Of a DNA stretch of 64,000 nt, positions 25,787 to 36,027 are shown one piece after another (positions within the stretch are counted from its first letter, which is position 1; each line of letters begins with the position of its first letter). The translations under genes and the position numbers were made by a program. The DNA is from an uncultured Gemmatimonadaceae bacterium. Lineage in GTDB: Bacteria > Gemmatimonadota > Gemmatimonadetes > Gemmatimonadales > Gemmatimonadaceae. The stretch lies in NCBI GenBank assembly GCA_963817955.1, contig CAWFQK010000005.1, positions 64,001-128,000 of the forward strand, read 5' to 3'. The notes below the pieces were generated by a model. It worked only from the letters and a program-made list of their open reading frames with translations, was not told where the DNA came from and ran no database searches.

Positions 25787-26806
25787 CTATCGTCCCGCCA
25801 CCCCGTAGGCCTTCAGCTTTCGCGCCAACGTTGGACGGGAGATGCAGAGAATGCGGGCTGCGGCACTCTGATTGTAGTCCGTGAGCTGGAGCGTCAGTTC
25901 CAGGGCTTCGCGCTCGATGTCGCGCAAGCGCTTGCCGTCGGCGGGAATGCGTATTTCGCCGAAGGTCACGGCGCCCCGCACGGCGCCATTGCCGTTCCGC
26001 CGCTGGTTGATGATGAGATGTTCGGCGCTGATGAGCGGGGTGTCGCACACCACCATCGCGCGTTCGACGACGTGCTTGAGCTCTCGCACGTTGCCCGGCC
26101 AACGATGCGCGCGGAGCACGGCGATCGCGTCCAGCCCGAGCTGGCGTCGCGGCAGACCCTGCAACCGCGCCGACTCGTGCAGTAGATGGTCGGCAATGAG
26201 ACGCACGTCGTCGTCGCGCTCGCGGAGCGGCGGCAATTCGATGCGCAGCACGCTGAGACGGGCGAGCAGATCCTCGCGGAATGAGCCCGCCGCCACACGA
26301 TCTTCCAGACGCGTCTTGCTCGCGGCGATCACGCGGCAGTGCACCACATTGCCTGTCGCCCCATTGCCCAGCCGAGGAATGCTGTATTCCTCCAGTGTGC
26401 GGAACAGCCGACTCTGCAACACCAGCGGCAGCTCTCCCACCTCGTCGAGATACACCGTGCCGCGGCCCGTCAACTCGAGCACCCCGACCTTCCGCGTGCC
26501 ATCGGTGCGCGATGGCGCGGTGCCGAACAGCTCGACCTCGAGCAATGGCGCCGGAATGGCCGCGCAGTTGATCGCCACGAACTGCGCGTTGGGGTTCAGC
26601 CCGGCGTTGTGAATGCAACGCGCGACCAACTCTTTACCCGTGCCAGCTTCGCCGGTCAGCAGCAGAGCGCGCAACGGGGTCGTCGCGACGCGACACGCCA
26701 CGTGCAACGCGTGGCGCATGCCGGCACTCGCCGCGATGACCGCCGCGAATTCTCGCTCGCTTCCACGGTCGGCAGGAAGCTGCCGCTGGACAGATGGCGC
26801 GGTCAT
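25787..26806 (-). CDS. Enhancer-binding-protein-type AAA+ regulator with Fis HTH; no sensory domain, degenerate GAFTGA
   Basis: GEAGTGKE, INCAAIP, LDEVG, FREDL, WPGNVREL, AARILCISRPTL; the GAFTGA position reads PSRTDG. Confidence 0.88.
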   Translation of the reverse strand: MTAPSVQRQLPADRGSEREFAAVIAASAGMRHALHVACRVATTPLRALLLTGEAGTGKELVARCIHNAGLNPNAQFVAINCAAIPAPLLEVELFGTAPSRTDGTRKVGVLELTGRGTVYLDEVGELPLVLQSRLFRTLEEYSIPRLGNGATGNVVHCRVIAASKTRLEDRVAAGSFREDLLARLSVLRIELPPLRERDDDVRLIADHLLHESARLQGLPRRQLGLDAIAVLRAHRWPGNVRELKHVVERAMVVCDTPLISAEHLIINQRRNGNGAVRGAVTFGEIRIPADGKRLRDIEREALELTLQLTDYNQSAAARILCISRPTLARKLKAYGVAGR

Positions 26807-26913
26807 GCGCTGGCTCCACGAAGAAGATGTGCACCCGGCATCATGCTTTCGGTCTCAGCTGACTGCACGGGTATATATTCTAGTATCGGCATATGAGTGG
26901 TCGCATCGCAGGG

Positions 26914-29900
26914 TCAGGCCGCACTTGCGCCAACGAGCGTGACATGTAATGCCGACAGACGCGCGGCCACGCCGACGAATCCCAAGGCTTCGACCTCCGG
27001 ACTGATCTGATCGATGAGTTCGAGCAGTGCATCGGTGGCACAGTGCAGCGACGGTGCGCACTCGGCCACCAGGTACGCCGCGACATAGGGGTCGTGCCGG
27101 CTGGCGATCGCGACCGCCTCGTGCAACAGGCGCATCGCGTGTGCATAGTCCCCCCGCTCGGCGGCAAGACGAATGCGCAACGCATCCACCAGATCGCGCC
27201 CCTGGAACCACCAGTCCGGACGCGGTTCGACGTTGGCGCGGATCCACCGCATGGCGTCTTCGGCCACGGAACGCGCGCCAACCGCCAGCGCGGCGAGTGC
27301 CTGTCCGGCGCGCGCGCCCAGCTCCACGTCCGGCTGTCCGATCCGCCCTGCGACAGCCAGAACCTGATCGTACAGCGCCGATGCCGTGGCCCAATCCTCC
27401 GCCTCGCGAGCCAGATGCGCCATGTTGTATAGCGTCGCGAGGCGATGCGACTCGTTGGACGATTCCGTGAACCGTGCCAACGCTTGGTCGTACCGTTCGC
27501 TCGCCAGATCCAATTGTCCGCGCCGCAGGTACAGCACGCCGAGATTCAACGCGGCCAGACCGGCGAGATCGACGGCGTGGGCGCTGTTCGCCGCTTCGAG
27601 TGCATGATCGTATGCCCCCTCGGCCGCAGTGACTTCGCCTGCACGCTGATGGATGATGCCGATGTTGATGTGGCACCGCGCTTCGCCGCAGCGGTCGCCG
27701 GCGGTGCGGAACAGCGACAGCGCGCGCTGATAGAAATCGCCCGCTTCACGCGACCGTCGGTCGATCATCGACGTCCCGAGCCGCGTCAGCGCCTCGGCGA
27801 GCAATCGCCCGTCGTCCGCTTGTTCGGCCGCCGCGACGGCATCGCGTGCCATCTGTTCCGCCTCGCGCCATTCTCCCAGCCGGCCCTGATACTGCGAGAT
27901 CATGTTGAGGAGCGCGGCTTCTTCGGAGCGGTCGAGCAGTTGCCGCGCCAGGGTCAGCAACTCGCGGCACGCCGCGATCGTCTCACCTGCCGGCTGTCCC
28001 TGGAGCGCGCGCGTGCGTTCGCGCATGCGGCGCAATCCAAGAATCGCATGATTCTCGGAACGCCCGGCGAGTCCGGCCAATGCGCGGTCGCACAGCTCCT
28101 CTGTCAAGGCATAGCGACCCTCGGTTTCCGCGACTTCGGCGAGATAATGCAACGCGCCCCCCCGCTGCTCGGGATCGCTGGCCGTTTGCTCGGCGATCTC
28201 GAAGAATTGCCGCGCCTCGGAGTGGGCGTACATCGACAGTGCGGCAGTGCCAGCCGTCATCGCATGCCCATAAGCCTTCTGCGGAAGACCGGCCTGATGG
28301 TAGTGCGTAGCGATTTCGGCTGCATTGCCGGGGGTGCGTTGCTCCAACGCCGCGGCTATGCGCTCGTGAATGCGCGCCAATCGTCGCGGATTGATCGCGC
28401 GCCGCACGGCGTCGACCAGCAGCCCGTGCGTGAAAGAGAACGCGCTGCCCGTCTTCTCCTGCCACGGCTCGACAACGGCATGGGCAATCCCCTCATCGAG
28501 TGCGTCGAGCACGTCGTCTTCGTTGCCGGCGCCGGCTGCCATCGTCAGATCGATGTCGAACACGCGTCCGATGACTGCGGCCGTATTGAGAATGCGGCGC
28601 GTCCCGTCCGATAGGCGCTCGAGGCGCCTGTCCATGAGACCGGTGACCGCCGCCGGCAGATCTCCCTCGCGCTCCGGACGCAATGCCCAACGACCGTGCT
28701 CGTACCGCACAGCACCGTCGTCGGTCAGCATGCGGACGAGCTGCGTAGCAAGGAGCGGGTTGCCCTCGGAGTAGCGCTGCAGGTAAGCGAGCACTTCCGG
28801 GCTGGCATCTCCACCGAACACGTTGAGCAGCCACACACGAAGCTCAGCTTCCGTGAGTCGCGGCAGCGCAATCTCATGGAAACGCTCATCGCGCAGCAAA
28901 CGATTCCGCCGCTCCGATGCCTCGCCGTGTGTCTCCTCGGCACGCATCGTGAGACAGATCAGGATGCGTTCCGTCTCGAGCTGCGCCACGACGTGCTCGA
29001 GCACGTCCCACGTGGCCGAATCCGACCATTGCATGTCGTCGAGCAGCACGATGATGGGGCGCGCCGACGCCGCCAGGCGCAGGAACGCGACAATCTCATC
29101 GAACAGGATGTATTTGTTCCCGGTTGGCTCGTGTACAGACGTCTCGAGCGCCGGCACGAGGCGCGACAGCTCGCGCCATTCCTGGTCCGCGACAACCCCG
29201 AGTTGGTGAATCGCGGTAATCGCTTCGGCCCATGGCGCGTACGGCGCTTTGGCATCGGCTTCGCTACAGCGTCCCGATACCAGCGATCCGGTGCGCAACC
29301 GTACCTCGTTGGTCAGCCGGCGCACGAGTGTCGACTTGCCGACGCCGGCTTCGCCGATGACGCACACCAGCTGAGGTCCGCCTTCCAGCGTCGAGTCGAG
29401 CCACCGGATCAACCGATCGAGTTCCTCTTCGCGTCCGACGAACTGCTGCAGGTTGATCGCCGGCTCGCGCGACTCCTCCTCACTTTCCGACGCCGAGACG
29501 ACGGTATCTCGCCCGCGGCGCTTCGCTTCGTAGAGCGCTCGATCCGCGGCCTCGAACAGCGCGTCGAAGTCATTGTGCTCAGCCCGCGCCGCCGCCACGC
29601 CGATCGACATCGTGACGGAGATCGAGCCCGAGCGTTCACGCAGCGGCACCGAGGCGCGGCGCACCGTGCCGCGGATACGCTCGGCGAGTTCCGCCGCCTC
29701 GGTGATCTGCATGTGTGGGAGGAGAATGATGAACTCGTCCCCCGCATACCGGCCAATGATGCCTGCCGCCGACGCGATCTCGCGGAGCGTGCCGGCAACG
29801 ACACGGAGCACCGCGTCGCCCTGCAAATGGCCGTGCGTGTCATTGACGTGCTTGAATTCGTCGACGTCAATCACGATCAGCGACACGGTCGCGAATGGAC

Positions 29901-31704
29901 CGCGCTCGGCGAGGATCTTGTTCGCCACATCGACGAACGGACGCCGCGTCAGGAGTCCCGTGAGGTCGTCGCTCGGGCCGGAGACACTGAGATCGCGCGC
30001 GGCCGTCCTGTCGGCCGCCGGCGCGTCGTGCGCCGGCGTGTTGTGAATCACCCGTTGCCGCAGCGACGGCGCACGCGTGCGCATCAGGTCTTCAAAGAAT
30101 CCGAACAGCTCCGGATCGAACTGCTTGCCCACGTCGGCACGCATGATCTCCAGGGCAGCCTCGTGGGCAAGCGCGCCCTTGTAGCTGCGCTTGGAAGTGA
30201 GCGCATCGTAGACATCGGCGATGCACAGCATGCGCGCGGCACGCGGAATATCCTCACCGGCGAGTTGATCGGGGTAGCCCTGTCCATCCCAGCGCTCGTG
30301 GTGCGAGCGCACCATCGGCACGACATCGCCCGGGAAGTCCATGTCGGCGAGCATTTCGACGCCGGCGAGTGGGTGGCGCTTGATCAATTCCCACTCATCG
30401 GGCGACAGCTTGCCGGGTTTGTTCAGGATCTCCGGCGGAATGATGAGCTTGCCTACGTCGTGCACGATGGCGCCAATACGGAACCAGAACAACTCGCGCG
30501 GCGACAACCCGGCACGCAGCGCCAGCGCGCACGACAGATCCGCCACGCGCTCGCAGTGCCCCTGGGTGTACCGGTCCTTCGATTCGATCGATCCGCTCCA
30601 GTGGCGAACCGCATCAATGAAGTGGCGCTCGAGACGGGCGTTGCGCCGATCGATATCGGCGAGGTCGCGCTTGGCGCTGAGCTGCGTGAAGATGCGGTGA
30701 CCGCGATTGAGGTGCATGAGCGCATCGCGGTGGCGTCCCTGTTTTCGGCACAGCTCCGCGTGCTCGCGCGCCGTTTCGGCGGAAAGCAGCAGATCGCGTC
30801 GATCCACGGCAACGGACTGCGCGCGGTGCAGGTGCTCCTCGGCCACCGCAAATTCACCCATCTCGCGCGCCACCGTGCCGAGGTGCTTCTCGATCTCCCC
30901 TAGGGCGAACGCGTCCTGCGTCTGCGCGGACAACGATGACGCGAGTTCGCACGACTTGCGCGCTGCCGCATAGTCGCCGCGGGCAATCTCCAGCTCGGCC
31001 CGGTTCACCTCCAACAACACGCGGGCAGGAATGTCGCCGAGCGCATCGGCAATCTGCACCCCCTCCTCAAAGGCGCGCGATGCATCTTCCCAACGCTCGA
31101 GGTCTGTGCAGAGCATGCCCATGTTATTGAGTGCCATGAGCACTTCCTTGGGCGCTCCGAGCGTACGAAATTCGGACAGACTGGTGCGATAGTATCGCAG
31201 CGTCTTGTCGTGATCGCCGCGCGTTTGGGCGATGACGCCAAGGTTCAAGGCGGTCATCGCGGCCAGCCGCGTCTCGCCAGCGTCTATCGCGTGCGAGCGA
31301 GCCTCGAGGTAGAGCGCCTCGGCCGTATCGAGTTCACCGCGCTGCTGATAAACGATTGCCTTGACGTTGATCGCGTGGCCAATGCCGCTGGGATCGCCAG
31401 CCAGCTCGGCGATGGCGATCGCTGCCTCGAGGCAATCGAGTGCCGCGTCGGCGTCGGCGTCGGCGCCGACCTGATACGTACGAGCCACCCAGCGAAGCAG
31501 CGATGACGCAACCTTGCCGTCCTGTACCCGCCTCAGCGAGTAGAGCGCCCGTTCATAGAGCGAGCGCGCATCGTCACGCCGCCCTTCTCGCTCGGCGAGT
31601 TGGGCTTGCTGAATGAGGACGTCGACCGGGAGATGCATCGTCGCAAACCACGCTGTGGGTGAACAGCCGGGAAGAACGCGGACAGTGGAGGCACGTGTAG
31701 TCAC
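26914..31704 (-). CDS. Multidomain TPR / HD-GYP / GGDEF / STAND-type ATPase / TPR signalling protein (alternative start 31638)
   Basis: N-terminal TPRs; HDVGK...HHERWDGQGYP; FKHVNDTHGHLQGD...RYAGDEF; GEAGVGKS and LLDDMQW; GNPL; C-terminal TPRs. Confidence 0.92.
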   Translation of the reverse strand: MTTRASTVRVLPGCSPTAWFATMHLPVDVLIQQAQLAEREGRRDDARSLYERALYSLRRVQDGKVASSLLRWVARTYQVGADADADAALDCLEAAIAIAELAGDPSGIGHAINVKAIVYQQRGELDTAEALYLEARSHAIDAGETRLAAMTALNLGVIAQTRGDHDKTLRYYRTSLSEFRTLGAPKEVLMALNNMGMLCTDLERWEDASRAFEEGVQIADALGDIPARVLLEVNRAELEIARGDYAAARKSCELASSLSAQTQDAFALGEIEKHLGTVAREMGEFAVAEEHLHRAQSVAVDRRDLLLSAETAREHAELCRKQGRHRDALMHLNRGHRIFTQLSAKRDLADIDRRNARLERHFIDAVRHWSGSIESKDRYTQGHCERVADLSCALALRAGLSPRELFWFRIGAIVHDVGKLIIPPEILNKPGKLSPDEWELIKRHPLAGVEMLADMDFPGDVVPMVRSHHERWDGQGYPDQLAGEDIPRAARMLCIADVYDALTSKRSYKGALAHEAALEIMRADVGKQFDPELFGFFEDLMRTRAPSLRQRVIHNTPAHDAPAADRTAARDLSVSGPSDDLTGLLTRRPFVDVANKILAERGPFATVSLIVIDVDEFKHVNDTHGHLQGDAVLRVVAGTLREIASAAGIIGRYAGDEFIILLPHMQITEAAELAERIRGTVRRASVPLRERSGSISVTMSIGVAAARAEHNDFDALFEAADRALYEAKRRGRDTVVSASESEEESREPAINLQQFVGREEELDRLIRWLDSTLEGGPQLVCVIGEAGVGKSTLVRRLTNEVRLRTGSLVSGRCSEADAKAPYAPWAEAITAIHQLGVVADQEWRELSRLVPALETSVHEPTGNKYILFDEIVAFLRLAASARPIIVLLDDMQWSDSATWDVLEHVVAQLETERILICLTMRAEETHGEASERRNRLLRDERFHEIALPRLTEAELRVWLLNVFGGDASPEVLAYLQRYSEGNPLLATQLVRMLTDDGAVRYEHGRWALRPEREGDLPAAVTGLMDRRLERLSDGTRRILNTAAVIGRVFDIDLTMAAGAGNEDDVLDALDEGIAHAVVEPWQEKTGSAFSFTHGLLVDAVRRAINPRRLARIHERIAAALEQRTPGNAAEIATHYHQAGLPQKAYGHAMTAGTAALSMYAHSEARQFFEIAEQTASDPEQRGGALHYLAEVAETEGRYALTEELCDRALAGLAGRSENHAILGLRRMRERTRALQGQPAGETIAACRELLTLARQLLDRSEEAALLNMISQYQGRLGEWREAEQMARDAVAAAEQADDGRLLAEALTRLGTSMIDRRSREAGDFYQRALSLFRTAGDRCGEARCHINIGIIHQRAGEVTAAEGAYDHALEAANSAHAVDLAGLAALNLGVLYLRRGQLDLASERYDQALARFTESSNESHRLATLYNMAHLAREAEDWATASALYDQVLAVAGRIGQPDVELGARAGQALAALAVGARSVAEDAMRWIRANVEPRPDWWFQGRDLVDALRIRLAAERGDYAHAMRLLHEAVAIASRHDPYVAAYLVAECAPSLHCATDALLELIDQISPEVEALGFVGVAARLSALHVTLVGASAA

Positions 31705-31732
31705 ATGCCTCCACCATCAGTATCGGCAGCTT

Positions 31733-31918
31733 TCAGCCGGACGCGAGCATATACCCGGAGAAATGCCAGATATCGAAAGTCACTTGATTGCTCCACGGGG
31801 AAAGGTCGGCGTTGGGCAGGTCGTTGATCATGGCATTACCGTGGATCAGGTCGATCGCGGAGAACCGGGTGGGTTCCGGTCTGCGACGGTAGTTTGAGGC
31901 CCTTGACATTGATGACAT
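31733..31918 (-). CDS. Small ORF ending in WHFSGYMLASG (61 aa, or 32 aa from ATG 31831); may instead be a frameshifted tail of the upstream lipoprotein
   Basis: Repeats the HFSGY motif of the upstream gene with different synonymous codons. Confidence 0.5.
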   Translation of the reverse strand: MSSMSRASNYRRRPEPTRFSAIDLIHGNAMINDLPNADLSPWSNQVTFDIWHFSGYMLASG

Positions 31919-32579
31919 TCGTCATGGAACTCGTGTCGATGCAATCCGGATCATCTGGCGTCGGATCGCAGGCTGTGCCGGCGGCCACATTGTAGCCGCT
32001 GAAGTGTTTGACTCGACGTGAAACGCGCCCGGTAGCCGGATCACGATGCGTTGCGAGAGTCGGATCGAGAATCGCCTCATTGTAGCAACCCGATGTCGGC
32101 GTCTTGCAGTACAGGATGTTGTACGCCCCGTTCTGCGATGCGGCATGGTCGGTGAACGTCAACATCACCCATCCGGCCGGATCGGACGTCGGCACGAACC
32201 GCAGCGGCGTTGTGAAGTCGACGTGCGCGTGACCGGTATTGTCGAGCCACGCCTTGACCCAGACGCTGGTGATGCTTGTCGCCATCTGGCAGGGCTTGTC
32301 CCATTCCGTGGCCCCATACGTTGAAGTCACGGGATTGCACAGCGAGTGAGCCGGGATGTTGACGGTGTTTCCAGCGCCTAACCAGAACTGGTTATTCCGG
32401 TTCGGGTCGACCGGGATAACGAAACGAAGTGTGTCCCACCCAGTGAGCGATTCTGTCGCGCCGCCGCCAGTCACCTCCGGTACTTGTGAGGCTTCGCTCT
32501 TGGGTGCCACTGGTCCATCACTGCACGCGCCCAACAGTACGGCGACTGCGATCAGTCCAGCCCACCCTGTCTTAGTCAT
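31836..32579 (-). CDS. Lipoprotein with HFSGY (ZU5-like HFS) motif
   Basis: GGAGG RBS, lipobox LLGAC, three Cys pairs, RRVKHFSGYNVAAG near the C-terminus. Confidence 0.8.
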   Translation of the reverse strand: MTKTGWAGLIAVAVLLGACSDGPVAPKSEASQVPEVTGGGATESLTGWDTLRFVIPVDPNRNNQFWLGAGNTVNIPAHSLCNPVTSTYGATEWDKPCQMATSITSVWVKAWLDNTGHAHVDFTTPLRFVPTSDPAGWVMLTFTDHAASQNGAYNILYCKTPTSGCYNEAILDPTLATHRDPATGRVSRRVKHFSGYNVAAGTACDPTPDDPDCIDTSSMTNVINVKGLKLPSQTGTHPVLRDRPDPR

Positions 32580-32758
32580 CAAAGCCTCCGTCGGCAGTTG
32601 ATTGTGGTACAACGCAGCACTCGTTACGCGTCGGTGCCGCGTACACTGTGCGACTCGGATTATCGGCTGACGGCAGCGGCGTTTAATTTTTTCGCGAACT
32701 CTGCCACGAAACGTTCCAGACTGGAACGAACTGCATCAGGCCCAAGCCCCTGTACCGC

Positions 32759-33148
32759 ATGGACGCATCGAACGTCCCTGGACGTCCTTACACGTGCGTG
32801 TACGACGGCACGTGCGCCGTCTGCACGCGCTTCTCGCGCGTGCTGCGTAGGTGGGACCGGCACGGACAGATCGAGGTGGTTCCGTCGCAGGCGCCGGGGG
32901 TCGCGGCGCGCTTTCCCTGGATTTCCGCACGCGACTACGCCGAGGCGCTGCAGCTCATCGGCCCGGGCGGCCGTACTTGGCAGGGTGCGGAAGCAATCGA
33001 GAAGCTTCTCGAAGTGTTGCCGAACGGGAAGCTGGGGGGGTGGCTGTTCCGGATCCCGTTCGCGCGGACGTTCGCCGGTCGCTTCTATAAATGGTTTGCG
33101 CGCAACCGCTACAAGCTTGGTTGTGGCAAACACTGTCGGTCACGGTGA
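32759..33148 (+). CDS. DCC1-like (DUF393) thiol-disulfide oxidoreductase
   Basis: YDGTCAVC (DxxCxxC) and YKWFARNRY. Confidence 0.88.
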   Translation: MDASNVPGRPYTCVYDGTCAVCTRFSRVLRRWDRHGQIEVVPSQAPGVAARFPWISARDYAEALQLIGPGGRTWQGAEAIEKLLEVLPNGKLGGWLFRIPFARTFAGRFYKWFARNRYKLGCGKHCRSR

Positions 33149-33238
33149 GACACGTGTCCTGTTACATGGCCGACTCGTGTGTCGTCTTTTGCGTGCCTGG
33201 CGACGTTGCCTGCGCGTGCTTTCCGCGATCCCCGGTCG

Positions 33239-34321
33239 ATGTCAGTCTCAAAGAAACTCCTCTTCATTGTTGCGGTCGCGGCATGTACGCGCGCTCCGTC
33301 CGGCACCGTTACGTTCGGCGCGGCCGGCCCGTTCAGCCAGGCGTACGGCTTGGCCAATAAGCAGGGCATTCAGCTCGCCCTCGACGAGATCAACGCGTCG
33401 TGGGGCGCACAACGCCACCTCGAGATCATATTCGCCGACGATTCCGGGAATGGCGCGCGCGCCAGTACGATCGCGCAGGGCTTCGTGGACGACATGCGCA
33501 TCATGGCCGTTGTGGGGCATGTGAACTCCGGCGCCATGGTATCGGCCGCCCGCGTGTACGACACCCACCTCGCCGCCGTCGCGACCACCGCAACATCGCC
33601 GAGCCTCACCGGCATCTCACCCTGGGCGTTCCGGGTGATTCCGAGCGATTCCGCGAACGGCATGACGATCGCTCGCTTCGTCAACAAGCTTGGCCGCAAG
33701 CGGGCCGCGGTGCTCTACGAGAACAACGCATATGGACGGGGCCTCGCCGACAATTTCCGAGATAGTTTCGCCGGCCAGATCATCACGATTGATCCAATCG
33801 GCGAGAGCGCCGATCAGAACTTCGAGCCATATGTGAGCTGGTACAAACGCGAACACCCAGACGTGGTGTTCGTCGCCGGCACCGACGCAACGGGCCTCTC
33901 GTTTCTCAAGGAAGCGCGACGCCAGCAGCTCACCGCCGATCTCGTTGGGGGCGACGGCTGGCAGACGGTTGCGCCGAGTCCCCTCGCCGAGGGCGCATAC
34001 GTTGGCGCGCCGTTCAGCGCACAGGACCAGCGCCCCGAGGTACAGACATTCGTGGCTGCCTACAAGAAGCGATACAATACCACACCCGACGGCAACGCCG
34101 CGCTCGCGTATGATGCCACCAAGTTGTTGGCGAACGCGGTGGAGAAGGTTGGCGCGAACCGGAAGAAGATCCGCGATTATCTCGCGGGACTCACCGAGGC
34201 CGACGCATATCACGGCGTGACCGGGGTCATTCGCTTCCGCCCCGACGGAGATCCCGTCGGCAAAGGCATCGTGATAACGCGCGTGCATCAGGGCATGCTA
34301 CAGGTGGAGGCGAGCCAGTGA
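33239..34321 (+). CDS. LivJ/LivK-type periplasmic substrate-binding lipoprotein
   Basis: Lipobox [43 protein letters not shown]. Confidence 0.88.
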
Positions 34322-36027
34322 GCACCCTCGAGCGCCTCAAGCTGAAGACGATTCGCGGCCGCCTGTGGCTGGGCTTCGGCGTTCTCGTCGCGTTGCTCCT
34401 GGTCGCCGGTATCGTGGCACGTCGATCGTTCGCCGGAATGTCGGCGACGATCACGCAGTCGCTCACCGAGGTCCAGGCCGAAGCGCAGCTTTCCAGTCAG
34501 TTGTCAGCCGACGCAGCAAAGACCATCGAGGCGGGCGCCCGATATCTCGAGACGCGTGACAGCACGGCACAGAACGCCTTTCGTAAATTCGGCTGGGCGG
34601 CGCACGACATACAGCACCAGATGAATGAACGGCCGAACCAATCGGCCGGTGAAGTCGCGATGGTTGCGACGATCGACAACAAGTTGTCGGCGATGGAAGT
34701 GAGCTACGCGCTCGCGCATCGCCTGACTGATCTCGGGCGCATGGATGATGCGCGCAAAGCAGCGGCCCAGGCGCGCGGCTCGATTGACGATCTTCTCGAC
34801 AACATCGAACGGCTCGGCGCCTTGAAGGCGCAGAAGGTGGCGGTGGCCAAGCGGGAGCTCGCAGCGGAGGCCGATCGGCGTTCGAGCTGGCTGCTCCTGC
34901 TCATCGGCGCGGCCCTCGTGTTTGGGATTCTCGTGGTGATGTACACCGTGCGAGGCATTGGAGAGCCGCTCGACGCACTCGTACAGCACGCTCGGCGGCT
35001 GAGCGAGGGCGACCTCACGAGCCGCGCGCAGACCGACATGCCGGGCGAGTTCGCCATTCTCGCTTCGGCCATGAATCAGACTGGGGAATCGCTGTCGCGG
35101 GTTGTCGGGGTCGCGGCCCGCACGGCGGAGGAAGTCTCGAGCTCGGCGCACGACCTGGCATCCGTCTCGGAGCAGATCTCGCTCTCGGCCGGCCAGATGG
35201 CAAGCGCCATGACCGACGTCTCCCATGGCGCCGAAATCCAGGTGCAGCAACTCCGCACGGTAGACGAAACGCTTCAGGTGATTCGTGAAGCCGCCGACGG
35301 CGTGAAGAAGCGTTCAGCAGAGGTCACCGATCTGGCGCGCAGCATCGAAGGCGTTGCCCAGGCGAAACGTCTGGAGATCGATCGGGCACTTGGGATTCTC
35401 GTGGACGTGAAGCACAGCGTCGAGGGTGCGGCAGGGGAGATCCGCGCGCTCAATATCACGGTGACCGACATCAACCGCTTCGTGGTTTCCGTCGGCCAGA
35501 TTGCCGACCAGACGAATCTTCTGGCGCTCAATGCAGCGATCGAGGCGGCGCGCGCCGGCGATGCGGGCCGCGGATTTGCCGTGGTCGCCGACGAAGTGCG
35601 GAAACTGGCCGAGCAATCGCAGAAGGCCGCCGATGACATCGTCCAGATGACGGGCGCCGTCACGTCGCGCGTAACATCGAGCGCGCGCGCCATGGAGACA
35701 AGTGCCGGTCGTGTCGGCGAGATTGAAACGGTCTCGCGCGACATTGACGGTGCGCTCCACACGATTACCGAAGCAGCCAGACGGACCCGCATTGCCGCCG
35801 TCGGCGTGACCAGCGCCGCCGAAGCCAATGCCCACACCGTGATCAGCGTTGCGAGCAGTCTCGAGTCTATCGCCAGGACTGCCGAAAGCCACGCCGCGGC
35901 TGCCCAAGAGGTGAACGCGTCGACGCAGGAACAGTCGGCTGCCTGCGAACAGATGACGTCTGCCAGCAACGTGCTGCTGCACGGGTCGACGCAGCTGAAG
36001 GCGCTTGTCGGCGGCCTGAGGACGTGA
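34318..36027 (+). CDS. Methyl-accepting chemotaxis protein
   Basis: Two TM helices, [24 protein letters not shown]...[20 protein letters not shown] overlap with the binding protein. Confidence 0.95.

Follow-up and report, generated by a model that had tools for sequence, protein, structure and literature searches.

Does a cluster of minus-strand genes in an uncultured Gemmatimonadaceae bacterium, in which the motif HFSGY is encoded twice, specify a peptide-triggered cyclic di-GMP (c-di-GMP) system? The cluster occupies positions 25,787 to 32,579 of the window, i.e. the whole 64,000-nucleotide stretch that was analysed (positions 64,001 to 128,000 on the forward strand of contig CAWFQK010000005.1, GenBank assembly GCA_963817955.1). 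An earlier note, made from the letters alone, had read it as four genes, namely an HFSGY lipoprotein gene, a second small HFSGY open reading frame (the mini-ORF), a large enzyme with TPR, HD-GYP, GGDEF and STAND domains, and an AAA+ regulator lacking the GAFTGA loop, and had suggested that peptides cut from the two HFSGY proteins tune c-di-GMP turnover. This model was supported in part: a ZU5-like fold is predicted for the lipoprotein and its linkage with signalling genes is conserved, but the pair of HFSGY peptide genes was not upheld. We favour, with modest confidence that extends to the proposed mechanism as a whole, a signalling module of three genes rather than four that is specific to the Gemmatimonadaceae lineage.

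The four co-oriented minus-strand open reading frames (ORFs) were found as described (25787-26806, 26914-31704, 31733-31918 and 31836-32612), and the two HFSGY motifs are encoded by codons 32006-31992 and 31765-31751. In all six frames of the 4.53-Mb genome HFSGY occurs three times, twice at this locus and once in a degraded paralogous lipoprotein on contig 2. As there are just three occurrences genome-wide, all in this family, the repeat is attributable to homology and not to chance. A Pfam scan assigned no family to either small ORF (247-aa lipoprotein and 61-aa mini-ORF). The module comprises the following features, the arrow marking a predicted cut.

31836..32579, minus strand: lipoprotein gene, 247 aa, with signal peptide, lipobox LLGA↓C, ZU5-like core and KHF↓SGYNVAAG
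31998..32006, minus strand: codons for His-Phe-Ser in ZU5 domain 1, with F↓S as the bond predicted to be cut (homologue alignment and structural alignment with NLRP1)
26914..31704, minus strand: TPR-HD-GYP-GGDEF-STAND-TPR protein, 1596 aa (Pfam, motifs, orthologue alignment)
25787..26806, minus strand: AAA+/HTH_8 regulator of the sigma-54 activator family, 339 aa (Pfam, motif comparison)

The lipoprotein family and its predicted fold

Translation of the lipoprotein probably starts at the ATG at 32579, with GGAGG upstream, and the N-terminus MTKTGWAGLIAVAVLLGA↓C is a lipobox signal. The lipobox Cys is invariant in 84/84 aligned homologues, and a lipobox-like start was present in 123 of 146 representatives found with a hidden Markov model (HMM), some of which are fragments. 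Besides the lipobox Cys, four further Cys are invariant in the 84 aligned homologues and would suit an oxidising, extracytoplasmic location. A homology search gave 312 proteins at E ≤ 0.001 among 785 candidates; among the matches listed (the best 120 of the 312 were inspected), all relatives were unnamed or 'hypothetical', and the labelled ones were from Gemmatimonadaceae or Gemmatimonadetes. An HMM search without word index gave 609 clusters (50% identity) at E ≤ 0.001 and 481 at ≤ 1e-10, and the phylum-labelled relatives were all Gemmatimonadota, bar one 1.6-kb contig. One type of relative is a single protein of ~260-290 aa in which KHFSGYNVAAG is followed by an end of the form R[RK]FSGY[IM]LASG; the other is a two-domain form of 375-400 aa with a whole second domain ending in HFSGYMLASG.

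Structures were predicted with AlphaFold for two homologues, the short form P0002, which shares 57% identity with the window protein, and the long form P0010. The P0002 model reached a pLDDT of 76 overall, with 83-96, mostly ≥ 90, in 10-residue blocks of the core, and the P0010 model reached 77; they consist of one or two beta-sandwich domains, each closed by the HFSGY strand. Foldseek placed ankyrin ZU5 first with a probability of 0.96-0.99, though with weak E values (6e-3 and above). In a structural search independent of Foldseek, against 48,161 chains and with a tool that warns that Z < 8 is common, the top three chains were ankyrin ZU5 domains, at Z 9.8 (root-mean-square deviation 2.5 Å over 118 residues), 8.7 (2.9 Å over 124) and 8.4 (3.0 Å over 115). 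Below them came CD97 GAIN (7.4), UNC5b (7.1), BAI3 GAIN (6.7) and other GAIN domains from 6.2, followed by CARD8 (5.7), ZO-1 ZU5 (5.7) and NLRP1 FIIND (5.2 and 5.1), i.e. the top of the search held the whole autoproteolytic superfamily and little else. The Pfam ZU5 profile (PF00791) matched the second domain of the long forms in 8/8 cases at E ≤ 0.03, 2/8 above the 21-bit cut-off, over profile positions 1-37 of 97 only, and did not match the window lipoprotein or short forms. ZU5 was annotated on 38% of the members of an Atlas cluster of lipoprotein relatives. In line with the fold that the earlier note had had in mind, the homologue models and structural searches predict that the lipoprotein family has a ZU5-superfamily (ZU5/GAIN/FIIND-type) beta-sandwich, at approximately residues 40-203 in the window protein (nt 32462-31971).

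PADLOC returned nothing for the lipoprotein and generic AAA/TPR matches only, and NCBIfam gave no model above cut-off for the three module proteins except a generic GGDEF domain model. A polymorphic-toxin or conflict system was considered and rejected, since the tails are short and neither toxin nor immunity domains were detected.

Linkage of lipoprotein and STAND genes

The genomes of 41 relatives were searched with the three module proteins and the coordinates of the matches were surveyed. Among the lipoprotein matches listed, 48 of 50 adjoin a gene of the large-protein family, or a lipoprotein gene that does; one of the two exceptions lies at a contig end and the other is a weak match in another family. 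A long module is present in 10 of the 25 genus genomes (G000, G002, G006, G009, G010, G012, G013, G014, G018 and G021), with 1-3 close lipoprotein paralogues directly upstream of a full-length orthologue of the large protein (73-83% identical) and then an AAA+ orthologue (74-82%). Two long modules stand in tandem in G006, G009 and G021, and arrays of the order lipoprotein-lipoprotein-large-lipoprotein-large were found in these three and at L015, L016, L019, L048 and L049. A short module was found in 20 genomes, where the gene for a ~1,040-aa GGDEF-STAND-TPR protein, which matches residues ~590-1590 of the large protein at 35-38%, is immediately followed by that for a distant lipoprotein paralogue (33-41% identical). 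Degraded or partial copies of the short module are present in five more genomes, including G000.

A wider scan of species-representative genomes, with a search pattern that contained KHFSGY, kept 75 loci, and at 52 of these the lipoprotein gene adjoins a STAND-type gene on the same strand: lipoprotein followed by TPR-HD-GYP(-GGDEF-STAND) at 27, (GGDEF-)STAND followed by lipoprotein at 24, and lipoprotein followed by STAND at one. One of the remaining loci has a STAND gene on the other strand and 22 have none, 12 of the 22 lacking 3 kb on one side. Stand-alone lipoprotein genes were seen between a GidA-family gene and topA, beside an Lhr helicase gene and in other contexts. The linkage of HFSGY proteins with TPR/STAND signalling genes, on which the earlier note had staked its model, is thus conserved at 52/75 loci. 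Judged from gene order, it is real but not obligatory.

A third pairing was found in relatives, in which a sensor-less AAA+/HTH paralogue of the regulator (50-55% identical) lies beside one or two genes for ~550-aa TPR-HD-GYP proteins (e.g. G013:C14:20153-24669, G024:C24:68094-70687 and G008:C113:1345-3917). This pair was not found in G000 with these queries, though it is conserved across the genus. The window module looks like a fusion of an AAA/TPR-HD-GYP pair with a GGDEF-STAND-TPR/lipoprotein pair; on that view, the lipoprotein would belong with the STAND half and the regulator with the HD-GYP half.

As a separate observation, the genome's own short module in G000 (G000:C2:1157613-1161424, L094) is decayed, its lipoprotein being spread over two frames and its STAND gene carrying a frame change and four in-frame stops.

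The large protein

The make-up given for the large protein in the earlier note was confirmed, as Pfam detected TPR_12, HD_5/HD, GGDEF, AAA_16 and TPR_MalT in the 1596-aa protein. Its start is probably Met23 at 31638, with orthologue matches beginning at residues 4-25. All of the following lie on the minus strand.

~31632-30655, minus strand: N-terminal TPRs (Pfam TPR_12)
30588-30106, minus strand: HD-GYP (Pfam HD_5, E 1.9e-36), HDVGK at residue 415 and HHERWDGQGYP at 468
29970-29506, minus strand: GGDEF (Pfam GGDEF, E 1.1e-38), motif AGDEF
29445-28957, minus strand: STAND NTPase AAA_16 (E 6.8e-30), Walker A GEAGVGKS at residue 784 and Walker B IVLLDD at 885
~28179-26917, minus strand: MalT-like TPR sensor (TPR_MalT, E 1.2e-16)

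The HD dyad is kept in 26/26 relatives and HHExxDGxGYP in 25/26, the remaining one having HHERWNGTGYP. The HD-GYP motifs are intact in the window protein, which thus has the sequence features of a c-di-GMP phosphodiesterase. The cyclase motif of the relatives reads AGDEF in 20/27, AGDEL in 6/27 and GGDEF in 1/27, and active AGDEF cyclases have been reported. No RxxD inhibitory site precedes AGDEF in the window protein, and more distant relatives have R..D there. Walker A and B are intact in the window protein, and many short-module STAND proteins are without the Walker A lysine. No transmembrane segment was detected in the 1596-aa protein; membrane anchoring was considered and rejected, as the best 19-residue hydropathy (1.69) falls on the Walker B strand. 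The protein also matched TIGR03903 (TOMM kinase/cyclase) in part, with an E value of 4.6e-35 and far below the model cut-off.

The AAA+ regulator

The 339-aa protein matched Sigma54_activat (PF00158, E 3e-43), AAA_lid_14 and HTH_8 in Pfam. The ATPase core stands at its very start, without a sensory domain in front of it, and a Fis-type HTH_8 domain forms its C-terminus. The sequence at the GAFTGA position reads ELFGTAPSRTDGT, and, as had been claimed from the window alone, the loop is absent, in this protein and in 9/9 close orthologues. A 48% orthologue (L038) keeps GAFTGA, as do, in variant spellings of the loop, 13 other paralogues of the window genome, and sigma-54 is encoded in this genome; therefore, the loss of GAFTGA is specific to this regulator. 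The absence of both the GAFTGA loop and a sensory domain makes it an atypical enhancer-binding protein (EBP), and it offers a clean example of one that has recently departed from sigma-54 control. According to the available part of PMC6158489, VpsR is a GAFTGA-less EBP that acts with c-di-GMP at a sigma-70 promoter, and TyrR, HupR, HsfA, PhhR and NtrX are other atypical members.

In relatives the regulator orthologue lies directly downstream of the large gene. No sigma-54-type promoter (TGGCAC-N5-TTGCW-like, ≤ 3 mismatches, with the GG/GC anchors) was found upstream of the lipoprotein gene, and none at ≤ 1 mismatch in the whole window. As a possible regulator site, the perfect palindrome TTCCAGACTGGAA (32714-32726) of the divergent promoter region was rejected: it is unique in the window, but is absent from the other 93 loci.

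Direction of coupling

Conserved adjacency, in two gene orders and in both paralogous architectures, shows a functional coupling between the lipoprotein and the STAND protein. We propose that the exported, lipid-anchored ZU5 lipoprotein would cut itself at KHF↓SGY, its lipidated body holding the short C-terminal SGY piece in a docked state. By analogy with MalT-type STAND proteins, ligand binding by the C-terminal TPR sensor, together with nucleotide exchange, would lead to oligomerisation, which would shift c-di-GMP synthesis (AGDEF, for which dimerisation is needed) against hydrolysis (intact HD-GYP). The conserved neighbour would control the sensor-less AAA+/HTH protein in trans, either via c-di-GMP or by direct contact. 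Like VpsR or TyrR, the AAA+/HTH protein would make no contact with sigma-54, and would regulate sigma-54-independent transcription.

The lipoprotein may be the envelope-side input of this circuit, the C-terminal STAND-TPR sensor reporting its state (a cleaved SGY tail or an unexported precursor), an assignment that we make tentatively, as possible rather than probable. A slight lean towards an input comes from three observations: the tie survives in short modules with decayed enzyme motifs; one sensor may have several lipoprotein genes, which are duplicated along with it; and the tails vary between paralogues. The earlier note had cast the N-terminal TPR cap as the peptide receptor, which does not agree with the paralogous short module: this keeps the lipoprotein without having the N-terminal TPR-HD-GYP part, so that a TPR receptor, if there is one, would have to be the sensor at the C-terminus of the STAND protein. 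Complex prediction for the mature G012 lipoprotein with the arm and TPR part of its STAND protein gave scores of 0.01 and 0.00, uninformative either way.

Several observations weigh against the module as read here. The membrane separates the lipoprotein, on the extracytoplasmic side, from the cytoplasmic sensor, and neither a transporter nor a membrane relay was identified. The window's 247-aa protein has no Pfam match, its fold being modelled on homologues instead, and structural Z scores of 8-10 are barely above the range that the tool calls common. The HFS triad could be retained for structural reasons, cleavage being predicted. Enzymatic output is doubtful in part of the family, given the AGDEF/AGDEL motifs and the lost Walker A lysine. 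Ten of the 75 loci have ≥ 3 kb on both sides and no STAND gene, in housekeeping or partly conserved contexts, and KHFSGY was part of the pattern by which the 75 were collected. Five genomes (G001, G005, G011, G015 and G020) carry the large gene and the AAA+ gene, and the family HMM found no lipoprotein in their examined flanks, the G005 locus being otherwise syntenic with the window. As the genomes are kin and the surveys share records (L014 is 100% identical to G012), the counts overstate independence.

These five genomes, and the stand-alone lipoproteins, would also fit an opposite direction, in which the lipoprotein is output or cargo, an envelope protein co-regulated with or controlled by the c-di-GMP module via the AAA+/HTH protein, and sends no signal to the sensor. 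Envelope and adhesion proteins are commonly under c-di-GMP control, and the long-module lipoprotein genes head a same-strand cluster that closes with a transcription factor gene. However, the STAND protein that the short module pairs with the lipoprotein has no transcription factor gene next to it and is often degenerate in GGDEF and Walker A, which argues for a relation at the protein level rather than transcriptional control, and the adjacency persists at ~35% identity and through the flip in gene order. We regard the output role as a serious alternative, nearly as likely as the input role.

Predicted self-cleavage at the HFS triad

H, F, S, G and Y are invariant in 84/84 aligned homologues, and H-[FL]-[ST] was present in 140 of the 146 HMM-found representatives (130 HFSGY, 2 HFSGF, 3 HLS[GA][YF], 2 HFTGY and 3 HFS[SL]Y). 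The other six comprise five possible fragments that stop short of the motif region and a 481-aa protein with the end LSGYILASG. Known cleavage sites show the same F to L and S to T exchanges, e.g. HL↓T in GAIN domains. In the structural alignment, the match to the N-terminal fragment of NLRP1 (chain end at 1212) closes with model residue F198, which is the Phe of HFS, and the F1212A and S1213A mutants of human NLRP1 are autoproteolysis-deficient (PMC7483925, as given in the available part). As the triad is near-invariant, its variants match those of known sites and the cut residue aligns with that of NLRP1, we judge it likely, from homologue sequences and models, that the lipoprotein cleaves itself at HF↓S.

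HFSGY could instead be a structural strand motif of a ZU5-like lipoprotein that is not proteolysed, in the manner of ankyrin or ZO-1 ZU5. The best structural matches are indeed the non-cleaving ankyrin ZU5 domains, and the two residues behind the triad, G and Y, show the same degree of conservation as H, F and S, in keeping with a structural strand. However, triad substitutions are only F to L and S to T, the set tolerated at known autoproteolytic sites, and cleaved NLRP1 N-terminal fragments end exactly at the residue aligned to F198. Thus, a purely structural role is unlikely.

C-terminal tails after the predicted cut

The predicted piece after the Ser has a median of 20 residues and a minimum of 7 in the 146 representatives, so that cleavage would usually free only ~20 residues, starting with SGY. 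Ends of the form SGY[IM]LASG are confined to the clade of the window, where they are near-invariant, and tails elsewhere are short and variable. In short-module lipoproteins (L041-L083) the tails are often SG[RKF]xC-x(5-8)-C, typical beside short STAND genes, and many stand-alone members (L027-L039, L074 and L087) end in an aromatic residue. The stand-alone tails were also seen to have alternating hydrophobic residues ending in F or Y (e.g. LSLDVSLGF and GDASY), reminiscent of outer-membrane beta-signals.

A more specific form of the input reading would make the ZU5 lipoproteins self-cleaving carriers of latent SGY peptides of 7-30 residues. The peptide, often with a disulfide loop, would be docked as the last strand until envelope damage, force or strand displacement frees it, and the freed peptide, or the unexported tail, would be the STAND-TPR ligand that switches c-di-GMP. 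If true, it would give bacteria an equivalent of both the GAIN tethered agonist and the ZU5-STAND partnership of NLRP1, and a diderm phylum a new route of peptide-signal maturation; we consider it a long shot.

The proposal of the earlier note goes further, in that two self-cleaving HFSGY genes would release SGY peptides (e.g. SGYMLASG) that the enzyme's TPR cap binds as quorum-type signals, in the manner of RRNPP systems. The shortness of the predicted pieces in most members, the variation of tails among paralogues, with the C-x(5-8)-C loop frequent in the short module, and the presence of 1-3 lipoprotein genes per sensor gene, co-duplicated with it, would all fit such peptides. Against it, the mini-ORF is a gene fragment (see below), and the second HFS of the window is without most of its ZU5 domain. 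SGY[IM]LASG, near-invariant inside one clade and absent outside it, is unlike a specificity-bearing pheromone; the short module, without N-terminal TPRs, retains the lipoprotein; no import route was seen; and the strand that follows the cut remains bound in known ZU5/GAIN/FIIND proteins. An RRNPP-like system is therefore very unlikely here.

The mini-ORF and the frame change

The mini-ORF had been taken for a separate HFSGY peptide gene, a reading that is replaced here by one in which it forms the C-terminal end of the lipoprotein gene, out of frame. The features concerned are as follows.

31866..31905, minus strand: frame-change interval with short runs GGG, AAA and CCC (homology in two frames, GC3)
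31733..31918, minus strand: 'mini-ORF', 61 aa, of which only ~31890 to 31736 is a genuine tail part; no Pfam family

The mini-ORF overlaps the lipoprotein ORF by 83 nt in another frame, and its last residues match the C-terminal end of two-domain relatives (P0048, 50% over 40 aa; P0063, 57% over 35 aa; P0007, 45%). GC content at third codon positions (GC3) peaks in the lipoprotein frame as far as about 31,900, and near 31890 the mini-ORF frame takes over (0.68-0.84 versus 0.30-0.55); likewise, homology to relatives runs in frame 0 until ~31,905 and in the +1 frame from ~31,866. These four lines of evidence point to a one-base frame change within 31,866-31,905 that splits a gene of ~280 codons. 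In the intact relatives examined the lipoprotein is one ORF read through in one frame, with the split seen in none, and at class A loci the lipoprotein is a single ORF, which within the window's genus runs to an end of the SGY[IM]L[AV]SG type. The last ~17 codons before the stop at 31836-31838 of the window lipoprotein ORF are thus out of the ancestral frame.

Compared with the long forms, the window gene also misses ~100 residues of the second domain. On these alignments, the mini-ORF is the displaced C-terminus of the lipoprotein, consisting of the last two strands of a lost second ZU5 domain and ending in WHFSGYMLASG. As most of that domain is lost, the second HFS lies within a two-strand relic and is not expected to cut. 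The conserved lipoprotein core is untouched by the frame change, and most family members end soon after the first HFSGY strand.

The frame change may be a real mutation or an assembly error. Matching shares in public sequencing runs were small (0.12, 0.07 and 0.00), and contigs from them cover 31600-31747 and 32229-32700 and nothing across 31748-32228. When 73 kb of the assembly were compared with relatives' genes, at least two further frameshift-like junctions were found, one of them in the paralogous module, and the long ORFs in the rest of the window are intact. Programmed ribosomal frameshifting, or an intended layout of two genes, might be argued from the coding-like GC3 of the tail frame (0.68-0.84), but is extremely unlikely, as all intact relatives use a single frame and the same assembly has those other junctions. 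Separately, G000:C4:294302-295616 shows a one-base frameshift-like junction in an otherwise 80%-conserved gene unrelated to the module, which can serve as a gauge of assembly indels or pseudogenes.

Comparison with known systems

PIDD1, NLRP1/CARD8 (FIIND), UNC5CL and the C-terminal domain of Nup98 resemble the lipoprotein in having a beta-sandwich (predicted here), H-F-S before the last strand, and a cut site that aligns with NLRP1 F1212↓S1213. PIDD has two HFS sites, like the two-domain lipoprotein relatives, and NLRP1 shares the partnership of ZU5 with a STAND NTPase, fused in NLRP1 and in separate genes here. In contrast to the animal ZU5/FIIND proteins, the domain here is part of an exported bacterial lipoprotein with no UPA, death-fold or CARD output, the piece after the cut usually has 7-30 residues, and the STAND partner is a separate, cytoplasmic protein with c-di-GMP domains. 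GAIN domains of adhesion G-protein-coupled receptors (GPCRs) share the fold superfamily (Z 6-7.4), a cut before the last strand and a short bound peptide as latent ligand (the 'Stachel' tethered agonist), and HL[ST] variants occur in the lipoprotein family as well; unlike in GAIN proteins, there is no seven-transmembrane receptor in cis, the receptor would be a separate protein in another compartment, and an agonist role is speculative.

Bacterial ZU5 autopeptidase domains are described in polymorphic toxins and large surface proteins in the available part of Zhang et al. 2012 (PMC3482391). Those proteins are likewise secreted bacterial members of the ZU5 superfamily with proposed self-processing at the surface; there the domains are N-terminal modules of very large RHS/SpvB toxins or of multi-domain adhesins and enzymes, whereas here the domain makes up a whole small lipoprotein, with no toxin or enzyme domain and with a c-di-GMP/STAND partner gene. 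Kaur et al. 2021 trace ZU5 autopeptidases, among apoptotic domains, to bacterial conflict systems, and in the available part of that account ZU5/FIIND is placed with TRADD-N proteins, without a link to STAND NTPases.

The large protein is comparable to MalT/AfsR-type STAND regulators with N-terminal cyclases, having AAA_16, a helical arm, a TPR sensor and a cyclase-type effector in front, and oligomerisation-driven activation would be expected; mycobacterial adenylyl cyclase-ATPase-TPR proteins are such cyclase-STAND regulators. It differs from them in that the AGDEF effector is preceded by a TPR-HD-GYP phosphodiesterase, giving a double-enzyme STAND protein, and in its ZU5 lipoprotein partner. 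The regulator shares with VpsR, TyrR, HupR and NtrX the AAA+ core of sigma-54 activators, a Fis-type HTH and the lack of a functional GAFTGA, in a c-di-GMP context (PMC6158489, available part), and in this context it can also be likened to FleQ, a c-di-GMP-binding EBP. It differs from the atypical EBPs in having no receiver or other N-terminal domain, and its Walker A and the DE of Walker B look intact from the sequence.

Three further systems were compared. RRNPP systems also combine TPR receptors with C-terminal peptides of exported precursors, but rely on a separate pro-peptide gene and, in Firmicutes, on import by Opp, neither of which was found here. In YfiBNR, an outer-membrane lipoprotein steers a cyclase, but YfiN is a membrane protein with a periplasmic domain and the large enzyme here is without a membrane segment. 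RcbAB has a TPR domain that represses a GGDEF domain, a repression lifted by the product of an adjacent gene, but RcbA is cytoplasmic and has no ZU5 domain as far as the available part of that report describes it (PMC12282931).

A literature search at abstract level found no description of a small ZU5 lipoprotein family or of its pairing with c-di-GMP/STAND genes, though the supplements of Zhang et al. 2012 could include relatives; it likewise found no relevant account of the HFSGY motif and none of a TPR-GGDEF-AAA_16 STAND architecture with a lipoprotein. Thus, bacterial ZU5 autopeptidases, cyclase-STAND-TPR proteins and atypical EBPs are known kinds, and the conserved ZU5-lipoprotein/STAND c-di-GMP module is, as far as the literature found goes, undescribed. 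Self-cleavage of the ZU5/FIIND/GAIN type plays a central part in animal inflammasomes, the PIDDosome and adhesion GPCRs, and what is known of its roots in bacteria comes solely from the architectures of toxins and adhesins. In the present case, small lipoproteins with little more than a ZU5-type domain form an entire family, persistently paired with STAND NTPases that bear c-di-GMP enzymes. If cleavage and coupling are real, the module would provide a simple bacterial system for the holding and release of a pre-cut strand, a candidate ligand source for an orphan STAND sensor, and a first functional handle on c-di-GMP signalling in an abundant, poorly studied soil phylum.

Neighbouring genes

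Divergent from the module, at 33179-36027 on the plus strand, lie genes for a periplasmic binding lipoprotein of the branched-chain-amino-acid type (380 aa) and, after a 4-nt overlap, a methyl-accepting chemotaxis protein (569 aa). The pair keeps its synteny in all close relatives checked (L013-L021 and L088-L093), with or without a ZU5 lipoprotein, and could be a further candidate input to the same circuit. Between the lipoprotein and binding-protein genes, at 32759-33148 on the plus strand, a 129-aa ORF has a CxxC start (TCVYDGTCAVC) and no NCBIfam match; it presumably resembles the DCC/DUF393 thiol-disulfide oxidoreductases. This ORF is found at the same place in many, not all, related loci; the ZU5 lipoproteins carry four invariant Cys.

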